64,000 nt of DNA from Lachnospiraceae bacterium (GTDB lineage Bacteria; Bacillota; Clostridia; Lachnospirales; Lachnospiraceae). Under the pieces are notes generated by a model. The model worked only from the letters and a program-made list of their open reading frames with translations. It searched no databases and had not been told where the DNA came from. The stretch is from contig JAEEQC010000002.1 in assembly GCA_016285135.1 (NCBI GenBank), forward strand, positions 515-64,514, written 5' to 3'. Position numbers and translations under genes: made by a program. Positions within the stretch are counted from its first letter, which is position 1. Each line of letters begins with the position of its first letter. Positions 13,552-56,486 of this stretch are shown in pieces.

Positions 13552-14217
13552 TTATTTGGAAATCAGCACATGATAATGATACGACGAATGCCCATGTCCG
13601 AACTGCTCATAGAAGTTCTCTACGTGATACACAGTTTCGACCGTAAAATCCTTCATGAGTTCGTAGATCCCGTCATAATCAGCGAAGTAATGAGGCACTC
13701 CGTACTCGGGTCCTTCGTTCATGCAGATCTTTGTGTTCGGGTCGATAAGCGGCCAGTCCGTGTTCTTAAAACCGTGAGTCGATTTGGAAGCGAGGGACAG
13801 GTAGCACTCTCCGCCTTTTCGTAAAACACGGTGGATTTCAGAGACGGCTTTTTTTACACCCTCTGTATCTGTATGCTGGATAACGTTACGACAGAATATC
13901 GAATCAAAGGATGAATCCTCAAAGGGAAGCGCGAGCATGTCTCCGGTTTTGCCGTGGATAGTCAGCCCTTCCTTTTTTGCCCATTCAAGTGTGTGATCTA
14001 CAGCGTCATCCATCAGATCGAAAGCATAAACATTAAAGCCGGCTTTCGCGAACTGGATACTGTGTCGTCCCATCCCGCATCCGAGATCGAGAAAGTCGTG
14101 ATAGCCCTTCTTTGTCCATCGGTCAAGCAGATAATAGCTTTCGATCGAGGGCTCGATCCAGATCTTCTTTTCGCTTTCGGGAACATTGTTCCAGTCCCAA
14201 CCCTTTGATTCTACCAT
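13552..14217 (-). CDS. Class I SAM-dependent methyltransferase
   Basis: Motif I DFLDLGCGMGRHSIQFAKAGFNVYAFDL, post-I and motif II-like FDSIFCRNVIQH. Start chosen at MVESKGWDW (ATG 14217, GGAGGT 5 nt upstream); the track ORF extends to 14253. Confidence 0.8.
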   Translation of the reverse strand: MVESKGWDWNNVPESEKKIWIEPSIESYYLLDRWTKKGYHDFLDLGCGMGRHSIQFAKAGFNVYAFDLMDDAVDHTLEWAKKEGLTIHGKTGDMLALPFEDSSFDSIFCRNVIQHTDTEGVKKAVSEIHRVLRKGGECYLSLASKSTHGFKNTDWPLIDPNTKICMNEGPEYGVPHYFADYDGIYELMKDFTVETVYHVENFYEQFGHGHSSYHYHVLISK

Positions 14218-14271
14218 ACATGACCTCCGGAAATAGTTTCTGTGAAATACCAAGGTATAAGCATTAAATAT

Positions 14272-14302
14272 TTGCGCACCCCCATTTTATGAGGATGCGC
14301 AA
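14272..14302 (-). terminator. Weak hairpin / possible terminator after hydF
   Basis: 7-bp stem ttgcgca / tgcgcaa with a 17-nt loop, followed on the minus strand by ATATTTA. The T-run is poor. Confidence 0.35.
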
Positions 14303-14344
14303 TAAACATTGCTATGAAATTATAACATATTTTTGATCGCCATG

Positions 14345-15598
14345 TCATCCGAATATCTTATCATGCAGCGTCGGGAAAATCCTGAGCGTCCTCTCGAGTG
14401 TACCCGAAGCCATCGCGAGCGTGATACCGTAGTTTGTAAACGGAATATTGTATTCCTGTGCTTTCCCGAGTCTGTAGGCAACCTCTTTGTCATTTACCAT
14501 GCAGGCTCCGCAATGAACGAGCATGCTGTACGCGGAAAGATCTTCAGGGAAGCCCTGACCGCTCGTATATTCGTAGTTAAAGTCCTTTCCTGTAAGCTTT
14601 TTGATCGCTTTCGGAAGTTTAACTGTTCCGATATCGTTGCACTGCCTGTGATGAGTACATCCTTCGCAGACAAGGATCTTTGCTCCGTCGTGAAGGTCTT
14701 TCGCGGCATTTATACCGAGAGCTGCTTCCTCAAGGAATCCTTTGTATCGTGCAAACAGTATCGAGAATGTGGTGAGCGGTACTTCGTCGGGGACGATATC
14801 CTTTATCTGCATAAGAGCCTGCGAATCGGTTATAACGATCGTGGGTGCGGCTTTAAGGCTGTCGAGAGTGTCTTTAAGACCGACATCCGTGGTTACAACT
14901 GCTGTAATGCCGTATTCGATCGTCTCTCTGATGGTGTGCGCCTGAGGAAGGATCATCCTGTCCTTGGGAGCCGACTCGTCTATCGGACAAACGAGCACGG
15001 CAACATCGCCCTTTTTAAGGATATCGACAACGACTTTGGCATCTTTCTTGACATCGGGGAGCAGTCCGGCGATCGCGATCTTAAGGTCCGTTATGCCTTT
15101 TGTACTTGTGGCGCTCACAAAAACACGGGGGATCGATTTGATCTCCATGAGCGAAGCTATCTCATCGAGCTTTTTGCCGAGAGCCACCCTGTCGTCACCG
15201 TTGCAAAGATCTTCTTTGTTGAAAACAACGATAAAAGGTGTCTTGCTTCCGATGAGGATACGAATGAGCTCTTCGTCGGAAATGGTTATACCGCTTGAAG
15301 CATCGATAACAATAACGCCTATATCGGTGTTCGTCATTGTCCTCTTTGTCCTGGCAACTCGCTTCTCTCCAAGTTCGCTGTCGTCGTCGAAACCGGGAGT
15401 ATCGTAGAGTACAACAGGTCCGAGAGGAAGGATCTCCATCGATTTGCCGACGGGATCGGTAGTCGTGCCCTTAATCTCTGAGACAAGCGCTACTTCCTGA
15501 CCGGTTATAGCGTTTACAAGGCTTGATTTACCGGCATTTGTATTGCCGAGAAATGATATTTTGGTCCTTGCTGCCGAAGAAGTGTCGTTTAAACTCAT
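14345..15598 (-). CDS. hydF: [FeFe]-hydrogenase H-cluster maturation GTPase HydF
   Basis: N-terminal GTPase LGNTNAGKSSLVNAITGQ ... DTPGFDD ... NKEDL. C-terminal cluster-binding signature CEGCTHHRQC ... (about 50 aa) ... HCGACM, i.e. the CxH...HCxxC pattern of HydF. Strong RBS AAGGAG. Confidence 0.85.
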   Translation of the reverse strand: MSLNDTSSAARTKISFLGNTNAGKSSLVNAITGQEVALVSEIKGTTTDPVGKSMEILPLGPVVLYDTPGFDDDSELGEKRVARTKRTMTNTDIGVIVIDASSGITISDEELIRILIGSKTPFIVVFNKEDLCNGDDRVALGKKLDEIASLMEIKSIPRVFVSATSTKGITDLKIAIAGLLPDVKKDAKVVVDILKKGDVAVLVCPIDESAPKDRMILPQAHTIRETIEYGITAVVTTDVGLKDTLDSLKAAPTIVITDSQALMQIKDIVPDEVPLTTFSILFARYKGFLEEAALGINAAKDLHDGAKILVCEGCTHHRQCNDIGTVKLPKAIKKLTGKDFNYEYTSGQGFPEDLSAYSMLVHCGACMVNDKEVAYRLGKAQEYNIPFTNYGITLAMASGTLERTLRIFPTLHDKIFG

Positions 15599-15688
15599 AA
15601 ATACTCCTTTCCGACGTGTAGCGTCTTAATCTGTGTCGATTAAAGTAATCCGTCCGTTTCATGCAGAACTATTTAACAACGATTATGT

Positions 15689-16810
15689 TTAAATGTTCAC
15701 ATTACCTGCAGCTTTGCTGGGTTCAAATATTGAACGGGCTTCGTCCTCGGTTATTGTTACACCGAATATCTCTTTATAGTATGATACAGTTTCGGCTATG
15801 ATGTCAATGTCTTCGAAGAGCGAAGGATAAATAGTTTTCGCCATCCATTTCAAAGTTACGGGTGTATCGATTCCGGGAGTGTAAGAACGATACATACCGA
15901 GTGGCATCTTGAACACTCTCTTGTTCTTTACTGCATCGATCTGCGACCAGTCATAGTTACCGACAGTGTTGTTGTAAAGATCGTCGGGATAGGACTTGTT
16001 AAAGTTTGTGATAAGGATAGTGTCGGGATTCCACTTGTAGATCTGCTCGAGTGTTACGGGAACAGAATTGTCCTTTTCAAGTTCTTCGGCAACATTTTTC
16101 GCACCGGCTACGGTTGCCCACCACTGTCCGAAGAAGTTCTTTCCCGAAGAAACGATCGATGAATCACTGTACTGGAAGAGAACAAACACACGTGCTTTTT
16201 CTTCGTCGGTGAGTTTTCCTACTCTGCTGTTAATGAGATCAAGAGATTCTTTGCTGTATTTGTCAACAAGCTCTCTTCTGTTTGTTGCTTCGTCGGGGAA
16301 GATCGCTTCCAGTACTTCAAGCCAGTGATCAAGCGTCTCAATACAGTCGTAATTCCACTTGTTTACTGACAGAGCTACAGCCGTAAGACCTGCGTTTCTG
16401 AGCTTTTCACCGAGTGCGGGCGTCGATGCGCTGTAGATGACAAGGTCGGGTTGTTGCTTTAAGAGCTCTTCTATATTGACATCATCTCCGTCAACAGCCG
16501 ATGTATCAACCTTTAAGAGCTCGGGATAAAGCTTTCCGAGAAGTGAATTCTGTGCTGCCGTCATGCTTGCGGGTGCCATCTCCACGATCTTTTCGGCGGA
16601 ATTAAAGAACACGCAAAGTACCGAAGGAATGGGGAATATGTTTGTAACAGCGATACGTTTTATTTCTTTGGGAACTTTTACCTCGATATCGAGGTGATCC
16701 TTAACGATCCTGTAATCGGACGAATCCGACTCCTTTGATGTGCCGGTGCAAGCACACAGACATGATACCGTAAGTGCAAGGACTAACAGTAAAGCTACGA
16801 TTTTTTTCAT
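15689..16810 (-). CDS. ABC transporter substrate-binding lipoprotein (siderophore/cobalamin/heme-type, periplasmic binding protein class 2)
   Basis: Lipoprotein signal MKKIVALLLVLALTVSCLCAC with AAGGAG RBS at the ATG at 16810. Overall layout (RIAVTNIFP ... DLVIYSAS ... ILITNF) resembles FecB/BtuF-type binding proteins. The track N-terminal extension (to 16909) is rejected. Confidence 0.8.
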   Translation of the reverse strand: MKKIVALLLVLALTVSCLCACTGTSKESDSSDYRIVKDHLDIEVKVPKEIKRIAVTNIFPIPSVLCVFFNSAEKIVEMAPASMTAAQNSLLGKLYPELLKVDTSAVDGDDVNIEELLKQQPDLVIYSASTPALGEKLRNAGLTAVALSVNKWNYDCIETLDHWLEVLEAIFPDEATNRRELVDKYSKESLDLINSRVGKLTDEEKARVFVLFQYSDSSIVSSGKNFFGQWWATVAGAKNVAEELEKDNSVPVTLEQIYKWNPDTILITNFNKSYPDDLYNNTVGNYDWSQIDAVKNKRVFKMPLGMYRSYTPGIDTPVTLKWMAKTIYPSLFEDIDIIAETVSYYKEIFGVTITEDEARSIFEPSKAAGNVNI

Positions 16811-16911
16811 TGTTTCTGACTCCTTAAAAATATATTTCAACTTCTTGATAAACATGTTGATACAGACCCTTGATGGCCATGGTCCGGGGGGACGGGGGTA
16901 ATGGACCATAT

Positions 16912-18042
16912 TTACATGATACGTCCCGAGTAAGCCCTGTGATGCACTTTAATAAGCTCGGCATCTTCAGGGCAGACGAATCTGTAAAGACCGTCCGCGT
17001 AAACAGTTTTGCATTTCGACAGTTCGTCTTCTATCTCGGTTTCGCTTGTCGTCATAATGTCTCCGTCGCTTAAAAGCGCTTCGATATTCGGACTGTCGAC
17101 TATGGGTGATATTACTCTTACATTGCCTTTAACGCTTATGTTACCTGTGTCGTCATTTGACAAAACCGCATTCTTCTCCATCGCAAGGCTTCTTGCGGCT
17201 ACGGGTTCGCCGATAACAACGGTGACGGCGTCTCTGTCCGAAACAAATCCGTCAAAAACGCTTATGCATTTCTTTTCTTTGACCGCATTCTTTAGTGCCG
17301 ATGCGACAGCGCTGTCTGTCACGGGTCCGCAAGGAAGTCCGATGACATAAGGGATTCCGAACTGTTCAAAAAGATACTTCGCAGTGTCGATACCTGTTAC
17401 CGAAACCACAAGAGAAACTTCCGCACTCGAAGCTTTGGCAAGATCTTCAAATCGTCCTTTCATCGACCAGGAAGAAATAACATTAAGACCGCATCCCTCT
17501 ATAACGGCCTTAACATGCTCGTATTGCTCGTCTTCGAGGTCGAGGGGTGTTGCACCCAGGATGTTTACTCCTCCCTTTACAGACGGATTGGGAGCGTTGC
17601 AGAAGCGTTTTGCAAGTGCAAGCAAAGCCATGCTCGCACCGATCTCGTATGACTTCATTCCGCTCACATCGAAACCGAACGAAGGTATTCCTGTTTTTTC
17701 TTCGATTTCTGCAGCTGTCAGATCGATATCGCTTCCTGTCATCCACGGTATGGGAGTTGAAGCTATAGCTGTGAAATTCGGCTTAAAATGTTCTGCGGCT
17801 TCAATCATGTCGGCTGCCAGCCTGTCACCTGCCGTGCCCATAACCGCTTCTTCCTCGGTAACAGCAGAAACGAACACAAGTCCGTCGTCTCCGTACCAGC
17901 GGGGTTCGTCATGCGTAGTGAATGTCGAGTTACATCCCGATGCATCATGCATGACAAGCAGTCCGCCGAGTCCGTAAAGCGCACTGATCACACCGAATGT
18001 ATCCGATGAATATGTGGAAAGTACTTTTCTTGCCTGATTCAT
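16912..18042 (-). CDS. Nitrogenase component-1-like oxidoreductase subunit (NifK/NifN/BchB-like)
   Basis: MHDASGCNSTFTTHDEPRW and VFVSAVTEEEAVMGT resemble the Cys/loop regions of the oxidoreductase/nitrogenase component 1 family. The ATG at 18042 overlaps the upstream TGA as ATGA; an alternative start lies at 18063. Confidence 0.7.
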   Translation of the reverse strand: MNQARKVLSTYSSDTFGVISALYGLGGLLVMHDASGCNSTFTTHDEPRWYGDDGLVFVSAVTEEEAVMGTAGDRLAADMIEAAEHFKPNFTAIASTPIPWMTGSDIDLTAAEIEEKTGIPSFGFDVSGMKSYEIGASMALLALAKRFCNAPNPSVKGGVNILGATPLDLEDEQYEHVKAVIEGCGLNVISSWSMKGRFEDLAKASSAEVSLVVSVTGIDTAKYLFEQFGIPYVIGLPCGPVTDSAVASALKNAVKEKKCISVFDGFVSDRDAVTVVIGEPVAARSLAMEKNAVLSNDDTGNISVKGNVRVISPIVDSPNIEALLSDGDIMTTSETEIEDELSKCKTVYADGLYRFVCPEDAELIKVHHRAYSGRIM

Positions 18043-19292
18043 ATGCAGCTCTCGCACCCCCATCCTTTGATATCAAGTGTCTTTTTGAGGTCTTTAACGT
18101 TAAGAAACGCGTCCGTCATCATCCTCGATAGTTCTACGATCCCGTCAAATCCGTAAAGAGGACCGTTCTCGACCATATCGACGAAATACCCGGTCTGAGT
18201 AAAGTACGCGGCCTTTTGTCCGAGCGCAAGAATTTTGACCGTATCATCCGGTGTAAATGTCCTCATCTCGGGACTGACACACTTTTCAAACCTGATTCCT
18301 TTTACATGTTTTTCAAGCCATTCGTAATCGGCCTCTTCTCCACCGACCGAATCGGAAAAAACTGTAACCACATTGAATCCGTGCTCCGCAAGGAGTCTTG
18401 CAAGTGAATAAGGACGTGTTGTGATCATACCGTCCACCGCAATTTCACAGTTTCCTATCACATCGTGTGCTTTACGAAGAGCCTCATCCGCACGGGCCTT
18501 ATCAGCCTCGAAAGTGTCGTAGGTTGTTCCGATCTCTTTGGCAAGTTTTTCAAGATTATCTCTGATCTCTTCGTATCCGAAGGAAAAAGGAATCTGAAGA
18601 CTCTTTATACCGAGCTTTTCCGCCAGCTCATCAGCTGCGTCTTTTGCTACGGAAAGGTTTGATATTATAAGTCCGGCGGACCCAAGCTTTTTGTAGTCGC
18701 TGTAATTATCGATGGCGGGCAGTTCGAGAAGCCTCTTTCCGGCTTTTTTTATAAGCGTTTTGATCTCGCTTGTTTCTGATACAGCAAAGCAATTACCGCA
18801 AAGCAGTACATCTCTGTCGTCTGTTTTAAGCGGCTTTATGGCAGCATAAAGTCGCTTTCGCATCATCTTGTCCGGATTTAAGGTGCTCTTGCGCATCGTG
18901 GGCGTCATATAGCAGTCTACAAAGTCAACATCCGGAAAACGCTCGTTCAAGATCCTGAAGCAGTCATCAAGATCGGTACCCATGAAATGATGTATACAGC
19001 TCGTGTATATGAGCACGCAGGGCGGTCTCTTCTTTAACCTGTTCAGGATATCCGTAACGCCCTCAACAAGAAGCTCTTCCATATCTCCGTCGGTTACATT
19101 GTGCTCTTCTATCGCAACTGTCGAAAACCTGTCTGTCAGGTTCATCTCGGCTGCGGAAAGAACTACGCCCCGCAGACACCCTGCAGCACAGACAAATATC
19201 TCATGAGCTTCGGGCACAAGCATTCCGACATGTACTATCGTCCAGCCGCCTCGCGCGGGAACACTGTATTCAAGTCCTGTTTGTTTCAGCAT
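18039..19292 (-). CDS. Nitrogenase component-1-like oxidoreductase subunit (NifD/NifE/BchN-like)
   Basis: FVCAAGCLRGVVLSAAE, LIYTSCIHHFMGTD and DCYMTPT have a component 1 family look. 417 aa, ending in GWGCESCI. Confidence 0.7.
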   Translation of the reverse strand: MLKQTGLEYSVPARGGWTIVHVGMLVPEAHEIFVCAAGCLRGVVLSAAEMNLTDRFSTVAIEEHNVTDGDMEELLVEGVTDILNRLKKRPPCVLIYTSCIHHFMGTDLDDCFRILNERFPDVDFVDCYMTPTMRKSTLNPDKMMRKRLYAAIKPLKTDDRDVLLCGNCFAVSETSEIKTLIKKAGKRLLELPAIDNYSDYKKLGSAGLIISNLSVAKDAADELAEKLGIKSLQIPFSFGYEEIRDNLEKLAKEIGTTYDTFEADKARADEALRKAHDVIGNCEIAVDGMITTRPYSLARLLAEHGFNVVTVFSDSVGGEEADYEWLEKHVKGIRFEKCVSPEMRTFTPDDTVKILALGQKAAYFTQTGYFVDMVENGPLYGFDGIVELSRMMTDAFLNVKDLKKTLDIKGWGCESCI

Positions 19293-19355
19293 TTTTCAAC
19301 CTCTGTAAGTTCTTTGATCAGTTTATCTTTTACGTTGATTATCCGTGCTTTTTAC

Positions 19356-19384
19356 ATTATATGTTTATTGCAATATTATGTTAA
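19356..19384 (-). promoter_or_regulatory. Putative internal promoter ahead of the NifD-like gene
   Basis: Minus strand reads TTAACA, a 17-nt spacer, then TATAAT, inside the 119-nt AT-rich gap between the NifH-like and NifD-like genes. Confidence 0.45.
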
Positions 19385-19411
19385 TTTCATACGGATACGC
19401 ATTTAAGGATC

Positions 19412-20161
19412 TTATGCTTCTTCAAGTATTTTCAGTGCCAGATCCTTATATGCAAGAGCTTCGGGGCTGTCCGGAAAAGCTTCGGCGACTGTTTTCCCCT
19501 TCTCTGCGGCTTTTGCGATAAGAGGACTGTGTTCTATGATCCCTGTGATCCTTGTATTGAAATCTTCGGCAAGCTCCTCAACCTTTTCAAGCTCCCTCTC
19601 TACATCACGTTTGTTGAGGATTATTCCGCCGAGCTTTGCGTATCCGCGACCGTGGAAACTGTCAACAGCCATGGCGATATTGGCTGCTGCATGAATGGCC
19701 ATGTTTTCACCTGAGGTTATCACATATACCGAATCGGCATAACCGCCTCTCATCGGCATCGTAAATCCTCCGCAGACAACGTCTCCGAGAACATCATAGA
19801 AAACAACATCAGGCTTATAGACGTCATAAGCACCTTTCTCGGCAAGCTTGTCGAAAGCGATAATTATCCCGCGTCCTGCACATCCTGTTCCGGGCTTGGG
19901 GCCCCCTGCTTCGACACACAGAGTCCCCGCAAAGCCTTCGGTCACCATTTCGCTCAGAGCGATGTTGTTCCCTTTTTCGCGTGAAAGGTCGAGGATAGTG
20001 CCTTCTATAGCTCCTCCCCGAAGGAGCGATGTTGAGTCCGCTTTGGGATCACAGCCGATCTGCATGACTTTCTTACCGCACAAAGCGAGTGCGGCAGCCA
20101 TGTTGGCAACTGTAGTCGATTTTCCGATTCCGCCTTTACCGTAGATAGCAATTTTCTTCAT
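19412..20161 (-). CDS. NifH/BchL/CfbC-family ATP-dependent reductase (nitrogenase iron-protein-like)
   Basis: P-loop IYGKGGIGKSTT, switch I CDPKADST, first cluster Cys CVEAGGPKPGTGCAGRGI, second cluster Cys YDVLGDVVCGGFTMPMR. 249 aa, shorter than NifH. Confidence 0.88.
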   Translation of the reverse strand: MKKIAIYGKGGIGKSTTVANMAAALALCGKKVMQIGCDPKADSTSLLRGGAIEGTILDLSREKGNNIALSEMVTEGFAGTLCVEAGGPKPGTGCAGRGIIIAFDKLAEKGAYDVYKPDVVFYDVLGDVVCGGFTMPMRGGYADSVYVITSGENMAIHAAANIAMAVDSFHGRGYAKLGGIILNKRDVERELEKVEELAEDFNTRITGIIEHSPLIAKAAEKGKTVAEAFPDSPEALAYKDLALKILEEA

Positions 20162-20188
20162 TCCGGTCCCTTCCTTATTCGTTTTAAC

Positions 20189-20983
20189 CTATTGTTCGCT
20201 TCGTTTTACGGGGATTATGTCCGTATATACACCGGCCGGTCCGTTTATGGTACCGATGACCGCATCTACCCCGTAAAATCTTCTCATATTTTCTTCTGTA
20301 ATGACGTTTTTGATGTCGTCATAGACATATGATCCGTCCATCGCGATCATAAGCGCCTTATCGGCCCAGCGTACCGCATTGCCCGGGAAATGAGTGTTAA
20401 AAATGCATGTTATCCCGTCTTTTGACAGCCTGTCTATTGTTTCAAGAACAAGAAGCTGGTTCTGATAATCGAGGTTTGCTTCGGGCTCATCAAGGATCAT
20501 GACCTTGGGATCGTTTACAATAGCCCGGGCAATGAGCACCATCTGGTACTGACCGCCGCTAAGGGCCATGCAGCTTTTGTTTGCGATACCCGTGAGTCCC
20601 ATTTTCTCAATGACTTTTTCCGCAGCTTCTTTATCGGTCTTTCCGGGAAGCGAAAAGATTGAGATATTGCCGGCTCTTCCCATAAGTATCATGTCGTAGA
20701 CGCTGATATCGGGCGGCAGGACTCTCTTCTGCGGTACATACGATAGCACTTTAAATAGCTTCTCGCTGCTTTGGGAACTGATGTCCGTGCCGTCTATCGT
20801 CGCAGTTCCTTTATCCCACTTAAGGAACCCGCACAGACAGCGAAGGAGTGTCGTCTTCCCTGCCCCGTTCTGACCCATGATCGCAAGCTTTTCTCCCGAT
20901 TGCAGATCGAAGGAAATATCCGAAAGCAGGGGTTCGCCTTTTTTATCGTATGAAAAATAGCCGTGTTCTACAGTGAGTCTCAT
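20189..20983 (-). CDS. ABC transporter ATP-binding protein (FecE/BtuD-like)
   Basis: Walker A GQNGAGKTTLL, signature LSGGQYQ, Walker B VMILDEPEANLD. The start overlaps the permease stop by 4 nt. Confidence 0.9.
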   Translation of the reverse strand: MRLTVEHGYFSYDKKGEPLLSDISFDLQSGEKLAIMGQNGAGKTTLLRCLCGFLKWDKGTATIDGTDISSQSSEKLFKVLSYVPQKRVLPPDISVYDMILMGRAGNISIFSLPGKTDKEAAEKVIEKMGLTGIANKSCMALSGGQYQMVLIARAIVNDPKVMILDEPEANLDYQNQLLVLETIDRLSKDGITCIFNTHFPGNAVRWADKALMIAMDGSYVYDDIKNVITEENMRRFYGVDAVIGTINGPAGVYTDIIPVKRSEQ

Positions 20984-22008
20984 ATGTTCTTGCCCCCTTT
21001 CCTTCTGAGCATCAGAATAAAGAAAGGTGCTCCGATGATCGCTGTGAGCACTGATATCGGGATCTCTTTTGGTGATATGGTCCTCGCAATTGTATCAACG
21101 ATCATCATAAAGCCGGCTCCGACGCTTATCGATGAGGGGATGAGCTTTACATTATTACTTCCGAAAAGCATCCTGCAAAAATGAGGAACGATAAGGCCGA
21201 CCCATCCCACCTGACCGCACATCGAAACACATGAGGCTGTGATCATTGTAGCTCCGACGATGCAGACCACGCGAAGGCGTTTGATGTTTACGCCCATGCT
21301 ACGTGCTTCGTCCTCATCGAGAGGCAAAAGATTGGTTCTGTATCTGATGAGGAAAAAGAACAAGAGACAAATGATTATCGGCGGTGCTCCAAGTGCCAAT
21401 GTACCGTATCCGGCAGAATCCATGCCTCCGAGGAGCCAGTAGGTGATCGCGGGAAGCTGCGATTCCGTATCGGCAGTGAATTTGACGAGTGAGATCAGTG
21501 CCGAGAACAGCGAACCGACCATGATACCTGCAAGTACCATGTTGATCCTGCCTTCGGGAGCAGCTTTTCCGAAAAGTGCCGTGATAACGACTGCGAGTAT
21601 TCCGAAAGCCACGGCGAGAAGCTGGATCCCGGTCATGTTAAATCCGAGAAGCATTGCGAGAACCGCTCCGAAACCGGACCCCGAAGCAACTCCGAGTGTG
21701 TCGGGTGTAGCAAGGGGATTCGAAAAGAGACCCTGAAAGATCGCGCCGCTCACTGCCAGACCCGCGCCGGCCAGAGCCGCCAAAAGGAGTCTCGGAAGTC
21801 GCATAGATCGAACGACCACATCGTTCATTCCTGCCGCTTCCTGTCCGGAAAACAGTCTGCCGATCGCACCGAATACATCATCAAGACCGATACCGATACG
21901 TCCGACAGCCAGTCCGATGATAAGCACAACAAAAGGGAACAATATAAGCAAGACCTTCGATACGATACCGGGTCTGTCCTTTACATAAGCTTTAATCTTT
22001 TCAGCCAT
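20980..22008 (-). CDS. FecCD/BtuC-family ABC permease
   Basis: RLPRLLLAALAGAGLAVSGAIFQGLFSNPLATPDTLGVASGSGFGAV is the hallmark FecCD region. Polytopic, 342 aa. Confidence 0.9.
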   Translation of the reverse strand: MAEKIKAYVKDRPGIVSKVLLILFPFVVLIIGLAVGRIGIGLDDVFGAIGRLFSGQEAAGMNDVVVRSMRLPRLLLAALAGAGLAVSGAIFQGLFSNPLATPDTLGVASGSGFGAVLAMLLGFNMTGIQLLAVAFGILAVVITALFGKAAPEGRINMVLAGIMVGSLFSALISLVKFTADTESQLPAITYWLLGGMDSAGYGTLALGAPPIIICLLFFFLIRYRTNLLPLDEDEARSMGVNIKRLRVVCIVGATMITASCVSMCGQVGWVGLIVPHFCRMLFGSNNVKLIPSSISVGAGFMMIVDTIARTISPKEIPISVLTAIIGAPFFILMLRRKGGKNI

Positions 22009-22204
22009 AAAAAAACCACCTTTATCCCTTGCTTGAAACTTCTCAAGGATACGGTGATCAAAAAAAGGAGACAGAAATAAAACCTTTCTGCTGACCTTTA
22101 ATCCGTATCTTTCGCCTTAAGTGACGTTTCGGCGTCAGGGGGATGTGAATGTATGTATTTTGTATTGCCGACTTCCCCGGCTCATAAGACTACGGAGTTG
22201 TTAC
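22009..22204 (-). promoter_or_regulatory. 196-nt structured leader / possible attenuator between the small regulator gene and the permease gene
   Basis: Minus-strand hairpin tgacg-ccgaaa-cgtca (22122-22137). A second hairpin cagaaa-ggtttta-tttctg (22072-22090) is followed after 5 nt by a T7 run (22060-22066), then RBS AAAGGTGG. No known riboswitch core recognised. Confidence 0.3.
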
Positions 22205-22450
22205 TCATGCCTTTTGATATGTGGCTTTGCAGGTAACGCCTTTAAGTCTTCCTATCGCGCCTGTCAGGGCATTGATCCTGTCCGAAGGTGCTACAACAGC
22301 AATCGCGATAATGTTGATACTTTTCTGAGGATACGGGATCCCCATTCTTCCGATCACATATTTGGCATACTCATGGAGAAGGCTGTTGAGCTCTTCCACG
22401 CTGTCAGGCTCCTCAACGATTATGCTGATCACGGCAACTCTGTCTTCCAT
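22205..22450 (-). CDS. Small ACT/NikR-C-like protein of the TM1266 family (putative iron-only hydrogenase system regulator)
   Basis: 81 aa; VAVISIIVEEPDSVEELNSLLHEYAKYVIGRMGIPY ... INALTGAIGRLKGV matches my memory of the TM1266/TIGR03959 pattern. Needs HMM confirmation. Confidence 0.6.
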   Translation of the reverse strand: MEDRVAVISIIVEEPDSVEELNSLLHEYAKYVIGRMGIPYPQKSINIIAIAVVAPSDRINALTGAIGRLKGVTCKATYQKA

Positions 22451-22511
22451 ATGAATTCCTTTCTTGCTCTGTCTCTCTGGGGTTTAACACTTGCATTGAA
22501 ACAAAGGAAAC

Positions 22512-22537
22512 AGGAGCATCGGTTTCACGATGCTCCT
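22512..22537 (-). terminator. Hairpin terminator downstream of the GH43 gene
   Basis: Perfect 10-bp stem aggagcatcg / cgatgctcct with a 6-nt loop. It is followed on the minus strand by GTTTCCTTTGTTTC. Confidence 0.6.
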
Positions 22538-22618
22538 TTAATATACTATTGCTTTTCTGTTTTGTAAAGCGTTCTGTGATCTTATTCTTTGCTTGCGAAG
22601 ATTGTTTTTTTTATTTGT

Positions 22619-24040
22619 TTATTTGCAGAATACAAACTTATCGATCTTGCAGAGCTCTCTGTTATCGAACGCATATGCCATCCAGTTCTTGCGTCCCGTC
22701 TCAACTCTGAAGTAAAGATCGTGTTTGCCGGATGTCGGAGGTATGATCACTTCGAGAACCGTGCTCACAGGTGAGATCTCGGCCTTTGCAACAGGCTCTG
22801 AGTCGGGGCTGTCAAAGTAGATGTTTATGATACCCTTCTGACCTACACCGATCTGATTGATCATGAGCTTCAAGTGATTACCGCACTCGTTTTCACCGAA
22901 ATCAAATGTTTTGAACCCGATAACACTGCCGCCGCAAATATTGGAGATCGGTCTTGTAAACACATCGAGTTCTGTGATGAACGCACCGCCCGTGAGTACA
23001 CATGCGGACTCTGCATATGTAACCTCAAAAGGTCTTAAGGAATCTGCAAATCCTCCGTGCGAAGTCATCTGTGCTTCAATGAAGGAACCGTCGGGATTCC
23101 TGAAGATCTTCTCCACACAGCCTTTTCTCGACATGATCGTGCCGTTCGTCATCTTGTGGTAGAAAATGTACCATTGATCCTTGATCTTGCAAAGAGAACC
23201 GTGGTCGTTTCCGCCCGGGAAATCCTTACCGCTGTCGATCAGCACACCCTTGTACTCAAAAGGTCCCATGGGGCTATTGGATGTTGCATAAACAAGCTGA
23301 GGACAGTTGCGGCTTGAATATATGAGATAATAAACTCCGTCGATCTTACGGGGTGAGCATGCCTCGAAGAACCTGAAAGGAGTAGCTACGGGGATGATGT
23401 CTTTCTTATAGGTGCCGGGGATGACAGTCCTCATGTCACTTGCGTCAAGCTCAACAACAAAGGAATGGAGGTATCCGCAGTAGCAATATACTCTTCCGTC
23501 ATCGTCAACAAGTACACCGGGGTCGATGAAGATCCTTTCTGTCATATCTTTTATAGCGATCTCCCACTCAGTGCCCTGCTCCTCGTCTTTCTCAACATTG
23601 GGACGTACGGGATGGGGGATGTCGAACTCTTCTCTGTGCTCTTCCATATACTTGAGCTGTGCGCTTGTATCGTACTGTCCGAGAGTCTTAAAAGGTCCTT
23701 CGGGTCTGTCGCTTACCGCAACGCATCCATAAGCGCCTTCTATATAGCAGAAAAGGTAATACTTGCCGTCCTTGCAGACAACATCCGGAGCAAAGATATG
23801 ATTGTTTGTCCAGGGTGTCTCGCTTTTGTGATCGCTGTCGTCACATGTATGGAACATATCACCGTGACATACCCAGTGCTCAAGATCGTCAACAGATGCC
23901 GACCATACTTTCATCTTGGTATCACAGAAATATTCTTCATGGGGTTTGTCGTGTGAGCCGTAGATGTAGACTCTGTCTCCGAAAACATGGGGTTCTCCGT
24001 CGGGGATATACTCCCAGCCCGGAAGGTAAGGATTAGGCAT
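22619..24040 (-). CDS. Glycoside hydrolase family 43-like (beta-xylosidase/arabinofuranosidase type) with C-terminal beta-sandwich domain
   Basis: N-terminus MPNPYLPGWEYIPDGEPHVFGDRVYIYGSHD, later FAPDVVCKDGKYYLF, DPGVLVDDDGRVY and EACSPRKIDGVYYLIYS (five-bladed propeller catalytic contexts). No signal peptide. Confidence 0.75.
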   Translation of the reverse strand: MPNPYLPGWEYIPDGEPHVFGDRVYIYGSHDKPHEEYFCDTKMKVWSASVDDLEHWVCHGDMFHTCDDSDHKSETPWTNNHIFAPDVVCKDGKYYLFCYIEGAYGCVAVSDRPEGPFKTLGQYDTSAQLKYMEEHREEFDIPHPVRPNVEKDEEQGTEWEIAIKDMTERIFIDPGVLVDDDGRVYCYCGYLHSFVVELDASDMRTVIPGTYKKDIIPVATPFRFFEACSPRKIDGVYYLIYSSRNCPQLVYATSNSPMGPFEYKGVLIDSGKDFPGGNDHGSLCKIKDQWYIFYHKMTNGTIMSRKGCVEKIFRNPDGSFIEAQMTSHGGFADSLRPFEVTYAESACVLTGGAFITELDVFTRPISNICGGSVIGFKTFDFGENECGNHLKLMINQIGVGQKGIINIYFDSPDSEPVAKAEISPVSTVLEVIIPPTSGKHDLYFRVETGRKNWMAYAFDNRELCKIDKFVFCK

Positions 24041-24129
24041 AAATAACCTCCTGCGATTAAATTAATTGCTATGTTTCAGGTGTCCTCAAGCAAAAGAAGG
24101 ATCACGCTGATTAGAATTCTCACTCACTA

Positions 24130-24168
24130 TAATAACAAAACGGTCGGAATAATCCAACCGTTTTGTTG
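24130..24168 (-). terminator. Rho-independent terminator after the GH5 gene
   Basis: 11-bp stem aacaaaacggt / accgttttgtt (24135-24145 and 24158-24168). The T-rich 3' arm and tail lie on the minus strand. Confidence 0.65.
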
Positions 24169-24193
24169 CTTATCTAATGCTTATATTTTGACA

Positions 24194-25237
24194 TCAAAGA
24201 TACTTTATCAGTTCGTCTCTTACTCCGTCGAGTCTCTCGTCTATGATACCGAAATGCATTTGTTTGTACGACCATGCCGCTCTCCCTACATTGATCTCTT
24301 CAAACGCATCGTGGATCGCCTTGAACCAGAAGAGCTCGTCCTCGGGATCAGTATACATGATGCAGCCGTACTCACCACAGTAAAGCGGTACATTAAGCTT
24401 CTCGGCGAGTGCTACAGCCGAAGAAAAGCTGGCTGTGAAGTAATCCTTTCCGAATACCGGACTGTCCGATCCGCCGGGTACAAGGATACGGTTTGCTGCG
24501 ACCCAATCCGGGAAATCATTTGCGAATTCCTTATTGATCTGCTCGTATGTCTTGTTCTTAATCGAGTACCTGTAATCCCTGGGCATCTCGCTGATCCAGT
24601 TGGCTCCCTGATGAGTGAAGATAAGCGGATCGTAGCAGTGGAATGTGTAAATGATATGATCGTCAAGCTGTATATCTAGATCGTTCAGTGACATATAGCT
24701 GTTGTTCCAGTAGCTTCCCACAACAATATCAGTCTCGGTCGTGATCTTTCTGATACGTCCGATGCAGATACGTGCGATCCTGTTCCATCTGTCGCTGTAT
24801 GACTGCTCCGTGATCTCATTAAGAAGTTCAAATGCAACTCTTCCGGACAGATGCCCAAAACGTTTAGCAATCTCCTCCCACAGCCTGTAGAAACGATCCT
24901 GAAGATCGGCTTCATCAAAGAAGCCATACTCTCCGTAGCCCAAGTCAAAAGAAAAGCCGTATACTCTGTGAAGGTCAAGGATCACATTAAGACCATACTT
25001 AAAGCAAAGAGAAATAGCATCCTCTAGGCGCTTAAAGCCGCTCTCACGATAATTACCCTTCTGGTCTTCAAGAAGATGGTAATCAAAAGGAATCCTCACA
25101 TGGTCAATACCCCATTTGGAGAAGATCTTAAAATCATCCTCCGTTATAAAGGTATCATACGTCTTTTCGGTATGGTCGTTTTGAGCGAACCAGCCTCCCA
25201 GATCGATACCCTTCTTGTAACCCTTCCAATCTCTCAT
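24194..25237 (-). CDS. Glycoside hydrolase family 5 (cellulase/mannanase-type)
   Basis: HVRIPFDY, acid/base context VAFELLNEI, nucleophile context LYCGEYGC. 347 aa, no signal peptide. Confidence 0.8.
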   Translation of the reverse strand: MRDWKGYKKGIDLGGWFAQNDHTEKTYDTFITEDDFKIFSKWGIDHVRIPFDYHLLEDQKGNYRESGFKRLEDAISLCFKYGLNVILDLHRVYGFSFDLGYGEYGFFDEADLQDRFYRLWEEIAKRFGHLSGRVAFELLNEITEQSYSDRWNRIARICIGRIRKITTETDIVVGSYWNNSYMSLNDLDIQLDDHIIYTFHCYDPLIFTHQGANWISEMPRDYRYSIKNKTYEQINKEFANDFPDWVAANRILVPGGSDSPVFGKDYFTASFSSAVALAEKLNVPLYCGEYGCIMYTDPEDELFWFKAIHDAFEEINVGRAAWSYKQMHFGIIDERLDGVRDELIKYL

Positions 25238-25300
25238 AAGTATTATTCTCCTATTCTCGCCAAAAACCTAAACGAAGTATTAGGGGCTTCTCCGACTTAT

Positions 25301-26056
25301 TTATTGTCTGTCGGAGTTATTATCATTACTGTTTATTTTCAGCAAAAAATTATGATCATTTTTTGTCAGTTCAGCTTTTTCCAAAAGATCGGGTCTGAGC
25401 CTTGCTGTTCTTTCAAGGGACTGTTCCCTGCGCCATTTTGCTATATTGGCGTGATGACCCGAAAGAAGTACTTCGGGAACGCTCATGCCCATAAAAACCT
25501 CGGGCCTTGTGTACTGCGGATATTCCAAAAGATTGCCTTCAAAGCTTTCTTCGCTTGCCGACTGATCGTTGGTGAGCACTCCGGGAACCATCCTTGAAAC
25601 AGCATCCATGATGACGACTGCGGGAAGCTCCCCACCTGTCAGTACAAAATCACCTAGCGATATCGCGTCATCGGCTTCGAGTACGATCACTCTCTCATCG
25701 ATACCTTCGTAGTGTCCGCACAAAAAGATCAGATCGTCATATTCAGCAAGTTCTTTTGCAATACTCTGGTCAAACTTCCTGCCCGAAGGAGTCATATATA
25801 TGATCCTTCCTTTTTTGTCACTGCAAAGGCTTCTTGCGTGTTCACATGCACGGTAAACGGGATCTGCCATCATAACCATTCCTGCACCGCCGCCATACGG
25901 ATAATCATCGACATGCAGATGTTTGTCTTGCGAAAAATCTCTGATATCGATAACATTTAGGTTTATAATTCCTCCCGATATTGCACGACCCGTAATGCTT
26001 GTGTTCATACATTCGCGAATCATGTCGGGAAATAGTGACAAAACTACAAAGTTCAT
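25301..26056 (-). CDS. trmD: tRNA (guanine37-N1)-methyltransferase
   Basis: VLSLFPDM ... HVDDYPYGGGAGMVM ... LICGHYEGIDERV ... SLGDFVLTGGELPA. Confidence 0.95.
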   Translation of the reverse strand: MNFVVLSLFPDMIRECMNTSITGRAISGGIINLNVIDIRDFSQDKHLHVDDYPYGGGAGMVMMADPVYRACEHARSLCSDKKGRIIYMTPSGRKFDQSIAKELAEYDDLIFLCGHYEGIDERVIVLEADDAISLGDFVLTGGELPAVVIMDAVSRMVPGVLTNDQSASEESFEGNLLEYPQYTRPEVFMGMSVPEVLLSGHHANIAKWRREQSLERTARLRPDLLEKAELTKNDHNFLLKINSNDNNSDRQ

Positions 26057-40310: not shown

Positions 40311-41321
40311 TCAGCACTTTCCGTTATCGAAAGCTTCCTGAACAGCAACTGCTACAGCTACCGTAGCTCCAACCATGGGGTTGTTACCCATTCCGATGAG
40401 ACCCATCATCTCAACGTGAGCGGGAACTGACGAAGAACCTGCGAACTGAGCATCACTGTGCATACGTCCCATTGTATCTGTCATACCGTAGGAAGCAGGA
40501 CCTGCTGCCATGTTATCGGGATGAAGTGTACGACCTGTGCCGCCGCCCGATGCTACCGAGAAGTACTTCTTGCCCTTCTCGTTGCACTCTTTCTTGTATG
40601 TACCAGCAACGGGATGCTGGAAACGTGTGGGATTGGTTGAGTTACCGGTGATGGAAACGTCAACGCCTTCCTTCCACATGATTGCAACGCCTTCTGTAAC
40701 GTCGTCTGCGCCGTAGCAGTTAACCTTGGCACGAGGGCCGTTAGAGTATGCTGTACGCTTGATCTCTTTAACTTCGCCCGAGAAGTAGTCCATCTCTGTC
40801 TCTACGAATGTGAATCCGTTGATACGGGAAATGATCTGAGCTGCGTCTTTTCCGAGACCGTTAAGGATAACCCTGAGGGGCTTCTTACGTACGCGGTTAG
40901 CCTTCTCAGCGATACCGATAGCGCCCTCTGCAGCTGCGAATGACTCGTGACCTGCAAGGAAGCAGAAGCAATCTGTCTCCTCTTCAAGGAGCATCTTGCC
41001 GAGGTTACCGTGTCCGAGACCTACCTTACGGTGATCAGCAACCGAACCGGGGATACAGAAAGCCTGAAGGCCTTCGCCGATAGCTGCGGATGCGTCTGCT
41101 GCTCTCTTGCAACCCTTCTTGATCGCGATAGCAGCACCTACTGTATATGCCCAGCATGCATTCTCAAAGCAGATGGGCTGGATCTTCTTAACAAGCGCAT
41201 AAACGTCGATACCGGCGTTCTTGCAGATGGTTTCGCATTCCTCGATAGAGGAGATGCCATACTGTGAAATGACCTTGTTGATCTGGTCAATTCTTCTCTC
41301 ATATGATTCAAATAAAGCCAT
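40311..41321 (-). CDS. GGGtGRT-family protein (conserved, function unknown)
   Basis: Eponymous motif VASGGGTGRTLHPDNMAAGPASYGMTDTMGR; 336 aa, as typical for the family; Gly/Ala-rich C-terminus GMGNNPMVGATVAVAVAV. Confidence 0.8.
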   Translation of the reverse strand: MALFESYERRIDQINKVISQYGISSIEECETICKNAGIDVYALVKKIQPICFENACWAYTVGAAIAIKKGCKRAADASAAIGEGLQAFCIPGSVADHRKVGLGHGNLGKMLLEEETDCFCFLAGHESFAAAEGAIGIAEKANRVRKKPLRVILNGLGKDAAQIISRINGFTFVETEMDYFSGEVKEIKRTAYSNGPRAKVNCYGADDVTEGVAIMWKEGVDVSITGNSTNPTRFQHPVAGTYKKECNEKGKKYFSVASGGGTGRTLHPDNMAAGPASYGMTDTMGRMHSDAQFAGSSSVPAHVEMMGLIGMGNNPMVGATVAVAVAVQEAFDNGKC

Positions 41322-41339
41322 GGTATAATCTCCTTCCTA

Positions 41340-42032
41340 TCATTCTTTTCTGGGATCGATGATCTTAACTGCATCATCAACACGACCATACTGTCCCTTA
41401 GCCTTTTCCCAAGCTGTAGTGGGATCGTCGCCCTTCTTGATGAAGTCTGTCATCTTTCCGAGGCTGACAAACTGGTAACCGATGATCTCGTCATTTGCAT
41501 CAAGAGCGATGCCTGTAACATAGCCCTCTGCCATCTCGAGATATCTGGGACCCTTCTTAAGTGTTCCGTACATTGTACCAACCTGGCTTCTGAGACCCTT
41601 TCCAAGGTCCTCAAGGCCTGCACCTACGGGAAGACCGTCATCAGAGAATGCGGACTGTGTACGACCGTAGATGATCTGGAGAGCGAGCTCTCTCATAGCT
41701 GTATTGATAGCGTCACAAACAAGATCAGAGTTCATAGCTTCGAGAACTGTCTTGCCGGGAAGGATCTCTGCTGCCATAGCAGCGGAGTGTGTCATACCCG
41801 AGCAGCCGATCGTCTCAACGAGCGCCTCCTGGATAACTCCGTCCTTTACATTGAGGGAAAGCTTGCATGCGCCCTGCTGAGGTGCACACCAGCCGATACC
41901 GTGTGTAAAGCCGTTGATCTCTTCAACCTTCTTGACCTTGGTCCACTTTCCTTCCTGAGGAATAGGAGCAGGATCATGCTTTGCGCCTTTGGCAACGGGG
42001 CACATCATTTCAACTTCGTGAGTATAGATCAT
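41340..42032 (-). CDS. IscU/NifU-N-like iron-sulfur cluster scaffold-domain protein with C-terminal extension
   Basis: GWCAPQQGACKLSLNVKDGVIQEALVETIGCSGMTHSAAMAAEILPGKTVLEA resembles the NifU N-terminal fold with conserved Cys. Start chosen at MIYTHEVEMM (ATG 42032, AAAGGAG RBS); the track ORF extends to 42122. Confidence 0.7.
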   Translation of the reverse strand: MIYTHEVEMMCPVAKGAKHDPAPIPQEGKWTKVKKVEEINGFTHGIGWCAPQQGACKLSLNVKDGVIQEALVETIGCSGMTHSAAMAAEILPGKTVLEAMNSDLVCDAINTAMRELALQIIYGRTQSAFSDDGLPVGAGLEDLGKGLRSQVGTMYGTLKKGPRYLEMAEGYVTGIALDANDEIIGYQFVSLGKMTDFIKKGDDPTTAWEKAKGQYGRVDDAVKIIDPRKE

Positions 42033-42112
42033 GTTGAAACTCCTTTCGTTTCTTTTGTTTTTATCTTGAACCAGACCTGCAAAAAACAGCCGGGTCTCGT
42101 TAACCGGGTGAT

Positions 42113-42141
42113 ATTTTCTCACATTTCTTTACAAATGTAAA
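42113..42141 (-). promoter_or_regulatory. Perfect 14-bp palindrome overlapping a putative -35, upstream of the IscU-like/GGGtGRT pair
   Basis: TTTACAAATGTAAA at 42128-42141. The minus strand gives TTTACA, a 17-nt spacer, then GAAAAT. Confidence 0.35.
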
Positions 42142-51416: not shown

Positions 51417-51508
51417 AGACCATACCTCTTATCATCTGTAAACTTATCCGAATACAAGTTACCAAATCTTATCCTGTACACAGCAGTGTCAGGATTATCG
51501 AACTTTTC

Positions 51509-52969: not shown

Positions 52970-52990
52970 GGGTAACTCCTCTTAAAAGTC

Positions 52991-54478: not shown

Positions 54479-54493
54479 CTATAGATACCTCGC

Positions 54494-56047: not shown

Positions 56048-56048
56048 G

Positions 56049-56438
56049 TCAGCTTTCCTCCTTATTATCTTTTTCTTTCCTGACTTTGATAAGGATCTCG
56101 TCAAGATCGAGAGTCTTGTACTTGCGATACAGCCTGATGGTCATGGAAAGCATGAGCGCAGTTACACTCACCGAAACAACGATACCCGTGAGCACAAGCC
56201 CGCTCGGGATGGGGTTGATGTATGTTGCCGCGTTCTCGCTCCCGCCCGAAAGGATTGGAGCAAGTCTTCCGCTGATATACCCCTGTGAAGCAAGTAACAG
56301 GTAGATCGCAACGTCCATGATATTAAGGCCGATTATCTTCTTGATGAGGTTTTTCTGGAACAACAGGTTCGAGAAGCCGATCACGAAGAGAATGGCCGCC
56401 ACTATATCGTTAAAATGATTGTAGATCTGTTCCCACAT
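56049..56438 (-). CDS. MrpC/MnhC (NuoK-like) small membrane subunit
   Basis: 129 aa, three TM segments, GLNIMDVAIYLLLASQGY ... LVLTGIVVSVSVTALML. Confidence 0.8.
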   Translation of the reverse strand: MWEQIYNHFNDIVAAILFVIGFSNLLFQKNLIKKIIGLNIMDVAIYLLLASQGYISGRLAPILSGGSENAATYINPIPSGLVLTGIVVSVSVTALMLSMTIRLYRKYKTLDLDEILIKVRKEKDNKEES

Positions 56439-56486
56439 ACAAATTCCTCTGCGAATTGTTTATTTAACGCTTATACTGCAAAAGTT

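Follow-up and report, generated by a model that had tools for sequence, protein, structure and literature searches.

The 64,000-nucleotide window analysed in this work (contig JAEEQC010000002.1 of a Lachnospiraceae bacterium, positions 515 to 64,514) contains, at 22450-14345, a block of eight intact open reading frames (ORFs) on the minus strand, in which two genes associated with [FeFe]-hydrogenase maturation enclose a nitrogenase-like reductase and an ATP-binding cassette (ABC) importer. Inspection of the ORFs gave the order TM1266, FecCD permease, ABC ATPase, NifH-like, NifD/E-like, NifK/N-like, Peripla_BP_2 lipoprotein and HydF. Comparison with related loci indicates that the block represents an uncharacterised, widespread clostridial operon type that is predicted to couple a nitrogenase-like reductase and importer to the [FeFe]-hydrogenase maturation regulon. 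All coordinates are those of the 64-kb window unless another locus is named, and the features of the block are as follows.

22512-22537, minus strand: upstream hairpin, 10-bp G+C-rich stem and T-rich tail (terminator scan, sequence)
22205-22450, minus strand: TM1266-family protein, 81 aa (TIGR03959, PF21699, 2nzc, AlphaFold (AF2) model)
22099-22146, minus strand: conserved leader hairpin, 48 nt (covariance-model match, 54 bits, E 5e-11)
22060-22096, minus strand: first terminator-like hairpin, GGUCAGCAGAAAGG...UUUCUGUCUCC then U7 (sequence, minimum free energy fold; variable between relatives L002-L004)
22009-22055, minus strand: second hairpin, CACCGUAUCC...GGGAUAAAGGUGG then U7 (sequence, blocks conserved in alignment, consensus fold)
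20980-22008, minus strand: FecCD/BtuC-type (type II) permease, 342 aa (PF01032, 276.7 bits)
20189-20983, minus strand: ABC importer ATPase, 264 aa (PF00005)
19412-20161, minus strand: NifH-like ATP-dependent reductase, 249 aa (PF00142, 292.6 bits)
18039-19292, minus strand: NifD/NifE-like subunit, 417 aa (PF00148; conservation; profile against the PDB)
16912-18063, minus strand: NifK/NifN-like subunit, 383 aa (PF00148; conservation in 60 homologues)
15689-16810, minus strand: substrate-binding lipoprotein, Peripla_BP_2, class III (PF01497)
14345-15598, minus strand: HydF, H-cluster maturation GTPase/scaffold, 417 aa (TIGR03918, domains, 5lad/3qq5, 90 nt after the binding-protein gene)
14272-14302, minus strand: downstream hairpin, 14-bp stem, 43 nt past the hydF stop codon (terminator scan)

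The initial annotation placed the 81-aa protein in the TM1266 family and called the 417-aa protein at the other end of the block a clear HydF, and both assignments were borne out. The 81-aa protein scored 108.2 bits against TIGR03959 (hyd_TM1266, cut-off 60.8) and 99.8 bits against PF21699 (cut-off 27), and its sequence matched that of the Thermotoga maritima TM1266 crystal structure 2nzc with an E of 1e-9. The AF2 model of the protein (pLDDT 93.5) was aligned to 2nzc by Foldseek with a TM-score of 0.93 and an rmsd of 1.0 Å over 80 columns, the next neighbours being the NikR C-domain (TM about 0.86) and ACT domains. Judged by this model, TM1266 is predicted to be a stand-alone NikR-C/ACT-like ferredoxin-fold sensor domain that lacks a DNA-binding domain. 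The window protein is 63-80% identical to its homologues and 69% identical to the copy in a canonical hydEGF operon; its association with hyd genes is twofold, with hydF in the same block and homologues heading hydEGF operons. A literature search on TM1266 returned nothing functional. HydF scored 484.2 bits against TIGR03918 (GTP_HydF, cut-off 325.55) over residues 6-405 of 417 and contains the Pfam domains MMR_HSR1, HydF_dimer and HydF_tetramer. Over its full length it aligned with 5lad and 3qq5, the HydF structures from Thermotoga (E about 1e-87), and the cluster motifs CxH and HCxxC fell in register (GCTHH/HCGAC against EGCTH/HCGGC of 5lad and 3qq5).

Strong terminator-like hairpins were found by the terminator scan on the coding strand at 22537-22512 and 14302-14272 only. 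The former lies between a glycoside hydrolase (GH) family 43 gene and TM1266, and is probably the terminator of the upstream unit and the 5' boundary of the block, with the latter probably acting as the operon terminator. The permease and ATPase genes overlap by 4 nt and the D-like and K-like genes by 25 nt, with the remaining intergenic gaps in the block measuring 27-122 nt. As first noted from the sequence, no terminator separates the binding-protein gene from hydF: the scan detected no terminator-like site in this 90-nt gap (15599-15688), its folding energy was no better than that of shuffles (z = 0.24), and it contains a good ribosome-binding site, GGAAAGGAG, which is hydF's own. The reported absence of HydE, HydG and HydA from the window was likewise upheld, as tblastn with reference proteins gave no further HydE, HydG or AspA-like match in the 64 kb, and six-frame scans for H-cluster motifs found none. 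The families and positions of the TM1266 and HydF genes, and of the reductase and importer genes between them, were all as described, with one correction: the 196-nt gap between TM1266 and the permease gene (22009-22204) is not empty, and contains a structured leader RNA. Together with two GH genes (GH5, 24194-25237; GH43, 22619-24040) and an S-adenosylmethionine (SAM)-methyltransferase gene (13552-14253), the block sits between trmD and rplS (13552-26056; rumen Lachnospiraceae metagenome-assembled genomes (MAGs)). Because trmD and rplS are usually adjacent, within an rpsP-rimM-trmD-rplS operon, the block resembles an insertion.

Recurrence of the arrangement was assessed by a profile search with the NifD-like subunit, which identified close relatives in at least 577 species-representative genomes. 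The best 80 loci were kept with 10-kb flanks and their genes counted by tblastn with the window proteins. The order across these 80 loci is TM1266-permease-ATPase-(second TM1266)-(hydE)-nifH-nifD-nifK-binding protein-hydF, and it is conserved at 45-57% NifD-like identity in Lachnospiraceae, Oscillospiraceae, Ruminococcus, Acutalibacter and others. GCA_016290375.1, Coprococcus catus GD/7 and Oscillospiraceae POC01 are among the carriers of the cluster. Where enough flank was present, hydF followed the binding-protein gene in 34 of 53 loci, hydE preceded the nifH-like gene in 34 of 51, at least one TM1266 was present in 46 of 51, and an ABC permease with ATPase in 43 of 51. Forty loci were complete on both sides, and 32 of these contained hydE and/or hydF; both genes were present in 22, hydE only in four and hydF only in six, the last including the window's close relatives L002-L004. 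The gap between the binding-protein gene and hydF is as short as 15 nt in relatives. Neither hydG nor hydA was found within 10 kb of the 80 loci (phmmer with HydE; H-cluster motifs). The adjacency of hydF, TM1266, nif-like and ABC genes is therefore not peculiar to this genome, the same order being found in dozens of species, and the block in the window appears from these comparisons to be a trimmed version, having lost hydE, of a widespread clostridial arrangement. The description of the window gene as an orphan hydF is correct in that hydE, hydG and hydA are missing from the window, but most relatives have hydE inside the same cluster.

In 29 of 51 loci (e.g. L006 7860-8081), the ABC ATPase gene and hydE are separated by a second, more divergent TM1266-like gene, which scored 58.7 bits against TIGR03959, just below the cut-off, with ~39% identity to the first copy; it is not present in the window. 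In three loci (L022, 12977-14311; L028; L066), the gene immediately after hydF belongs to the aspartate ammonia-lyase family (NF008909, 546 bits). A distant member of the family, L090 (1-12318; D 38.5%, K 33% and H 61% identity), has the order hypF-hypC-hypD-hypE-TM1266-nifH-nifD-nifK-like-hydF-hydE with an extra 843-aa Oxidored_nitro gene upstream, such that [NiFe]- and [FeFe]-hydrogenase maturation genes stand on either side of one nif-like set. The gene that immediately precedes the leader RNA in L101 resembles a [NiFe] maturation protease, by eye only.

The leader RNA in the gap between TM1266 and the permease gene consists of the conserved hairpin followed by the two terminator-like hairpins, each ending in U7 (22060-22066 and 22009-22015). 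The conserved hairpin reads CUGAC-GCC-GAAA-loop-UUAAG-GCG-AAAG-AUACGG in the window, with purine-rich internal loops, and its consensus is CUGAC-RYY-RAAA-(loop)-UURAG-RYG-RAAG-AUACGG. The second terminator-like hairpin ends at the permease ATG and includes the permease ribosome-binding site. Alternative pairings are available between CCGUAUC in the 5' half of this second hairpin and GAUACGG of the conserved hairpin, and between its (G)GGAU and AUCC(C) located 5' of the conserved hairpin. The same terminator/antiterminator platform emerged when eight homologous leaders were folded to a consensus. When the leader was aligned with those of the three closest loci (L002-L004), invariant blocks stood out amid diverged sequence, with one compensatory change. 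Covariation was clear at two stem pairs, with AU 17/GC 17/GU 1 and CG 20/UA 15 among 35 sequences, and GC 39/AU 26/GU 1 and CG 49/UA 17 among 66 distinct sequences of an independent set taken from the first 100 metagenome contigs. No A-C or C-A mismatch occurred in the 66 sequences, although the search pattern permitted them.

A covariance model of the 35 sequences gave 45 matches with E < 0.02 when both strands of 1.4 Mb of locus DNA were searched. All 45 were on the sense strand and stood at the 5' end of the clusters, and besides these there were two marginal matches (E 0.16 and 0.59). Among loci with the nitrogenase-like genes, which belong to the NFL superfamily as described below, the leader RNA was present in 41 of the 59 whose leader region was available. 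It was located upstream of TM1266 in 22 cases, in the gap between TM1266 and the permease gene in 12, and directly before hydE or the permease gene in eight. Both of the canonical hyd operons that were examined carry the RNA as well, and the leader hairpin with its terminator/antiterminator was found in the window (22004-22150), L085 (9871-9919), L088 (7324-7371) and about 160 other loci. Rfam 15 gave no match in window positions 14000-23000 at E <= 1, nor at the leader in L014, L085 and L088 at E <= 10, and a literature search for an RNA motif before hydE or hydG found no description. The covariation, the fixed sense 5' position and the terminator with alternative pairing point to a structured cis-regulatory RNA.

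The genes downstream of the leader RNA were surveyed by a metagenome scan using a degenerate hairpin pattern in which complementarity was not required, which gave at least 119 contigs. Among the 119 contigs listed, TM1266 was adjacent to the RNA in 107. Downstream lay hyd genes only in 45 (typically TM1266-hydE-hydG-hydF or hydF-hydE-hydG), an SsuA/NMT1-family ABC importer in 27, nitrogenase-like genes with or without hydE, hydF and a FecCD importer in 12, a FecCD importer alone in 11, and TM1266 then an ABC ATPase, left unclassified, in one; the remaining 23 contigs were too short for a call. These contig counts are inflated by abundant species, there being 56 TM1266 groups (90% identity) among the 89 contigs with a called TM1266 ORF. 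Since the RNA/TM1266 cassette is found at operons for hyd maturases, nitrogenase-like enzymes and two types of importer, these operons constitute one apparent regulon. In the SsuA-type loci (L120; L174, 180-227 with genes to +3 kb; and ~25 other metagenome loci), the genes after the RNA and TM1266 encode a binding protein of the SsuA/NMT1 family, a BPD_transp_1 permease and an ATPase. These make up an ABC importer of the nitrate/sulfonate/taurine type, and no hyd or nif-like gene is found close by. In L188 (2325-2373), a stand-alone hydG immediately follows the leader RNA without an intervening TM1266, and a site of this type could be the home of hydG where hydE and hydF are part of the nif-like cluster.

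These observations bear on whether the adjacency of hydF to the nif-like and ABC genes is accidental, the second of two options raised by the initial annotation, with an ordinary HydF lying beside an unrelated cluster. Genes for hydrogenase maturation are often scattered in Clostridia, and solitary hydF genes exist (L086, L087 and L089), as this explanation would have it. It is set aside as extremely improbable given that the same order is kept in dozens of species from several clostridial groups at 45-57% NifD-like identity, that the gap before hydF shrinks to 15 nt in relatives, and that the leader RNA and TM1266 cassette is common to these clusters and canonical hyd operons. The same identities argue against a single recently transferred island as the cause of the recurrence.

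The other option, one regulon linking HydF to the nitrogenase-like enzyme, came with the suggestion that a HydF-type scaffold would have a new role here, and the sequences of the maturases bear on this directly. HydF proteins 51-57% identical to that of the window are encoded in the TM1266-hydF-hydE-hydG operon of Aristaeella lactis (complete genome), in the TM1266-hydE-hydG-hydF operon of a Clostridiales MAG, and as the solitary genes of L086, L087 and L089, while the window HydF is 45-56% identical to cluster-linked HydFs. In a neighbour-joining tree without support values, comprising five non-linked clostridial sequences and a Thermotoga outgroup, HydFs from canonical contexts and solitary HydFs nested among the cluster-linked ones. 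The extra 1.1-kb gene in related clusters encodes a true HydE (TIGR03956, 509 bits, cut-off 254.6), and canonical-operon HydE is 52-65% identical to linked HydE, compared with 53-70% (median 61%) between linked sequences. Because linked and canonical-operon HydF and HydE intermingle in this way, they are ordinary maturases rather than a specialised paralogue, and the possibility that the cluster-linked proteins are diverged paralogues was discarded on the basis of the tree and the identity ranges.

It follows that the suggestion of a new role is weakened, as no specialised paralogue of HydE or HydF is seen. In such a role, HydE and HydF would assemble or carry a cofactor, either organometallic or Fe-S, that serves the nitrogenase-like enzyme, instead of or besides the H-cluster of HydA. 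The tight operonic interleaving is compatible with this, as are the lack of hydG and hydA within 10 kb of the 80 loci, the hypF-hypC-hypD-hypE genes directly before TM1266-nifHDK-like-hydF-hydE in L090, and the protease-like gene upstream in L101. Against it, the linked HydF and HydE form no distinct clade and their equivalog scores are as high as those of canonical proteins, the window lacks hydE, and eight complete loci lack both genes. Furthermore, the same regulator heads full hydE-hydG-hydF operons and stand-alone hydG, which fits a split canonical pathway. A new role for HydE and HydF is on balance considered quite improbable, and this part of the first option was not retained, whereas the regulon itself is supported by comparative evidence: the recurrence, the bracketing terminators, and the leader RNA and TM1266 cassette shared with canonical hyd operons. 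The shared cassette is the strongest support for the one-regulon option.

The nitrogenase-like enzyme consists of a NifH-family reductase and two Oxidored_nitro subunits that are encoded together, the combination which defines the NFL superfamily. The NifH-like protein scored 311 bits against TIGR01287 (cut-off 394) and 298 against CfbC (cut-off 402), both below the thresholds, and retains the P-loop and the [4Fe-4S] cysteines C94 and C130, invariant in 59 homologues. Conserved residues of the D-like subunit are C35, C39, C99, C127, C413 and C416, the last two forming a C-terminal CxxC, together with H21, H30, H101 and H102. Its best solved relative was NifE, with an E of only 4e-6 (17-sequence profile against the PDB), and remote similarity to BchN was also detected. 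C99 aligns with a [4Fe-4S] cluster cysteine of NifE; no cysteine is present at the aligned iron-molybdenum cofactor (FeMo-co)/L-cluster position, and none is conserved at the alpha-C88 position. In the K-like subunit, C44 is the only conserved cysteine, and H39 and H51 are conserved too (60 homologues). The window proteins scored far below cut-off against all NCBIfam models for Nif/Vnf/Anf, CfbC/CfbD, BchL/N/B and BchX/Y, and the residues that mark nitrogenase proper, the FeMo-co ligands alpha-Cys275 and alpha-His442 and the 3+3 P-cluster cysteines, were not found as a set. Given no cofactor cysteine, a single K-like cysteine and scores below cut-off for the Nif, Cfb and Bch models, the enzyme is therefore assigned to the NFL superfamily and is not a nitrogenase. 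The D/K-like heterotetramer is predicted from the residue pattern to carry a simple inter-subunit Fe-S cluster and not FeMo-co. Assignment to CfbC/D, BchL/N/B or BchX/Y was dropped because of the sub-threshold scores, with only remote similarity to NifE and BchN.

After a shared MLK start, the D-like subunit of the window is ~22 aa shorter near the N-terminus than most homologues (about 439 aa), and the near-identical strain L081 encodes a 454-aa form, an in-frame length polymorphism. A second, distinct nif-like set (NifH 49%, D-like 21% and K-like about 30% identity) was observed 6 kb upstream of the main set in Clostridium ljungdahlii and C. muellerianum (L076, 637-3509; L080, 209-3084). A nif-like set of this second type comes immediately after the leader RNA in metagenome contig L117.

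The presence of PF01032, PF00005 and PF01497 proteins defines the importer as type II (FecCD/BtuCD-type). The best NCBIfam matches of the ATPase were to corrinoid, heme and Fe-dicitrate ATPases, all below cut-off. The lipobox cysteine of the binding protein, C54 of the longest ORF, is 100% conserved, and gene callers start the protein at MKKIVALL. The PDB relatives of the binding protein were 4ovk (1.6e-43, uncharacterised), HI_1472 (3psa, 6e-18) and the Ni-binding 4ino (1e-10); HI_1472 binds molybdate/tungstate and the other distant matches are Ni/Fe chelate binders. No substrate-specific NCBIfam equivalog reached its cut-off for the permease, ATPase or binding protein. A substrate was not named, as the NCBIfam models scored far below cut-off and the PDB neighbours were mixed.

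The favoured interpretation, held with moderate confidence, is that the block at 22450-14345 is one attenuator-controlled operon in which the nitrogenase-like enzyme and importer are co-expressed with a canonical HydF, the organism's ordinary H-cluster scaffold. Transcription would probably start upstream of TM1266 and meet the structured leader before the permease gene. The 48-nt hairpin would compete there with the terminator hairpins, the last of which would also mask the permease ribosome-binding site. Read-through would allow expression of the permease, ATPase, NifHDK-like proteins, binding protein and HydF, and the transcript would end at the downstream hairpin past hydF. In this manner, the Nif-like/ABC module would belong to the same regulon as hydE, hydG and hydF, and a compound taken up by the importer may be reduced by the Nif-like enzyme to yield iron, sulfur or another precursor for H-cluster assembly.

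Several points weigh against this interpretation. A strong (11/12) sigma-70-like promoter match in the nifH-nifD gap makes an internal transcript start possible, and both co-transcription of the block and regulation by attenuation are inferred from sequence alone. No leader match was found in 18 of the 59 loci. Neither hydE nor hydF lies beside the Nif-like genes in eight of the 40 complete loci, among them those of Intestinibacter bartlettii and Clostridium ljungdahlii, and the hyd link of the Nif-like cluster is frequent but not obligatory. The inflation of the contig counts and the make-up of the HydF tree, both given above, count on the same side. A direct biochemical link between the Nif-like module and H-cluster synthesis is a conjecture.

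These eight loci also suit an explanation in which only the signal is shared, the Nif-like reductase and importer serving nutrient acquisition, for instance by freeing S or Fe anaerobically from an imported compound as Mar and Isr do for S, under the same switch as hydEGF and feeding general metabolism. Consistent with this, the RNA/TM1266 cassette heads the SsuA/NMT1 (27) and FecCD-only (11) importers with no hyd gene nearby among the 119 contigs listed, and those Group IV NFL enzymes that have been characterised break C-S bonds and are induced together with ABC transporters (PMC11423573; PMC13474568). However, the placement of hydE between the importer genes and the nifH-like gene with hydF after the binding-protein gene, in 22 of 40 complete loci, is tighter than co-regulation requires, the D/K-like subunits lack the P-cluster and L-cluster ligand sets of Mar, and the binding protein is of the metal-chelate/oxyanion class rather than the sulfonate class. 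Sharing of the signal only is considered unlikely.

A more specific proposal extends the favoured operon model, with TM1266 as an ACT/NikR-C-like ligand sensor that binds the leader hairpin in a HutP-like manner, and the Nif-like enzyme and importer as an accessory H-cluster branch delivering iron, sulfur or another precursor to HydG, HydE and HydF. As a whole, this proposal is tentative and rather unlikely. The regulon would then comprise hydE/hydG/hydF, the nitrogenase-like reductase and two kinds of importer, and TM1266 may not bind DNA. The small regulator gene hutP precedes a terminator-containing leader, and TM1266 is placed likewise in the window. The leader resembles those of HutP-hut, TRAP-trp attenuation and terminator riboswitches in having a conserved hairpin followed by a terminator with alternative pairing. 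It differs from them in having no sequence or Rfam relation, and the TM1266 fold is NikR-C/ACT-like rather than that of HutP or TRAP, with RNA binding by TM1266 being hypothesised only.

Compared with the canonical TM1266-hydE-hydG-hydF operon, the clusters share TM1266 (69%), the leader RNA, and orthologous HydF (51-57%) and HydE, whereas the window lacks hydG and hydE and has instead 7 kb of ABC importer and NifHDK-like genes. In vitro, H-cluster assembly has been described with HydE, HydF, HydG and general metabolism. The likeness to NifEN/NifDK lies in the Oxidored_nitro fold, NifE as best solved relative, C99 at the NifE [4Fe-4S] cysteine and the NifH-like partner. The relationship is nonetheless very remote, with no L-cluster/FeMo-co cysteine and with extra conserved residues C35, C127 and the C-terminal CxxC in the window protein. 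CfbCD, DPOR/COR, Mar (IV-C) and Isr (IV-F) likewise pair an ATP-dependent NifH-like reductase with a D/K-type component that lacks FeMo-co, and the Mar and Isr loci share their regulation with ABC importers (PMC13474568). None of these systems is linked to hydE, hydF or TM1266, and the partner in the window is a type II FecCD importer with a class III binding protein.

Most clades of nitrogenase-like enzymes are without known function, and are listed as uncharacterised in a 2026 review of NFL systems, which makes no mention of HydF (Chem Rev 2026; PMC13474568). The gene association itself is already known in outline, as Dos Santos et al. (2012, BMC Genomics 13:162; PMC3464626) described NifHEN-like genes with hydrogenase maturation genes in Firmicutes in one sentence and a supplementary figure, and reported that nitrogenase-like genes co-locate with ABC transporters. 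Both associations are seen at once in the window. That paper contains no census, maturase status, TM1266 or regulatory element, and the version in the window lacks hydE; the clades described there may be the same family as that of the window. A literature search on HydF with nitrogenase-like enzymes gave nothing relevant beyond that paper. The locus census, the canonical nature of the maturases and the leader RNA/TM1266 regulon appear to be new.

Elsewhere in the window, positions 49509-57578 encode a multi-subunit antiporter module of the Mrp/Mbh type, which includes four Proton_antipo_M paralogues and a fused MnhB/MbhD/MbhE protein and in which no hydrogenase catalytic subunit was noticed. 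At 40311-42122, a GGGtGRT-family protein (PF14057, 645 bits) adjoins a 260-aa protein without a Pfam match.

The significance of the arrangement lies in a nitrogenase-like reductase and importer that would share an operon and leader RNA with hydrogenase maturases, the NifD-like family occurring in at least 577 species-level genomes, which include many from gut and rumen Clostridia. The leader RNA and the small TM1266 protein are concrete, testable entry points. Organisms of the type that carry these clusters are among the main producers of hydrogen during fermentation in the gut and rumen. If hydrogenase maturation does have an additional control point, this would bear on hydrogen and methane output in these environments.

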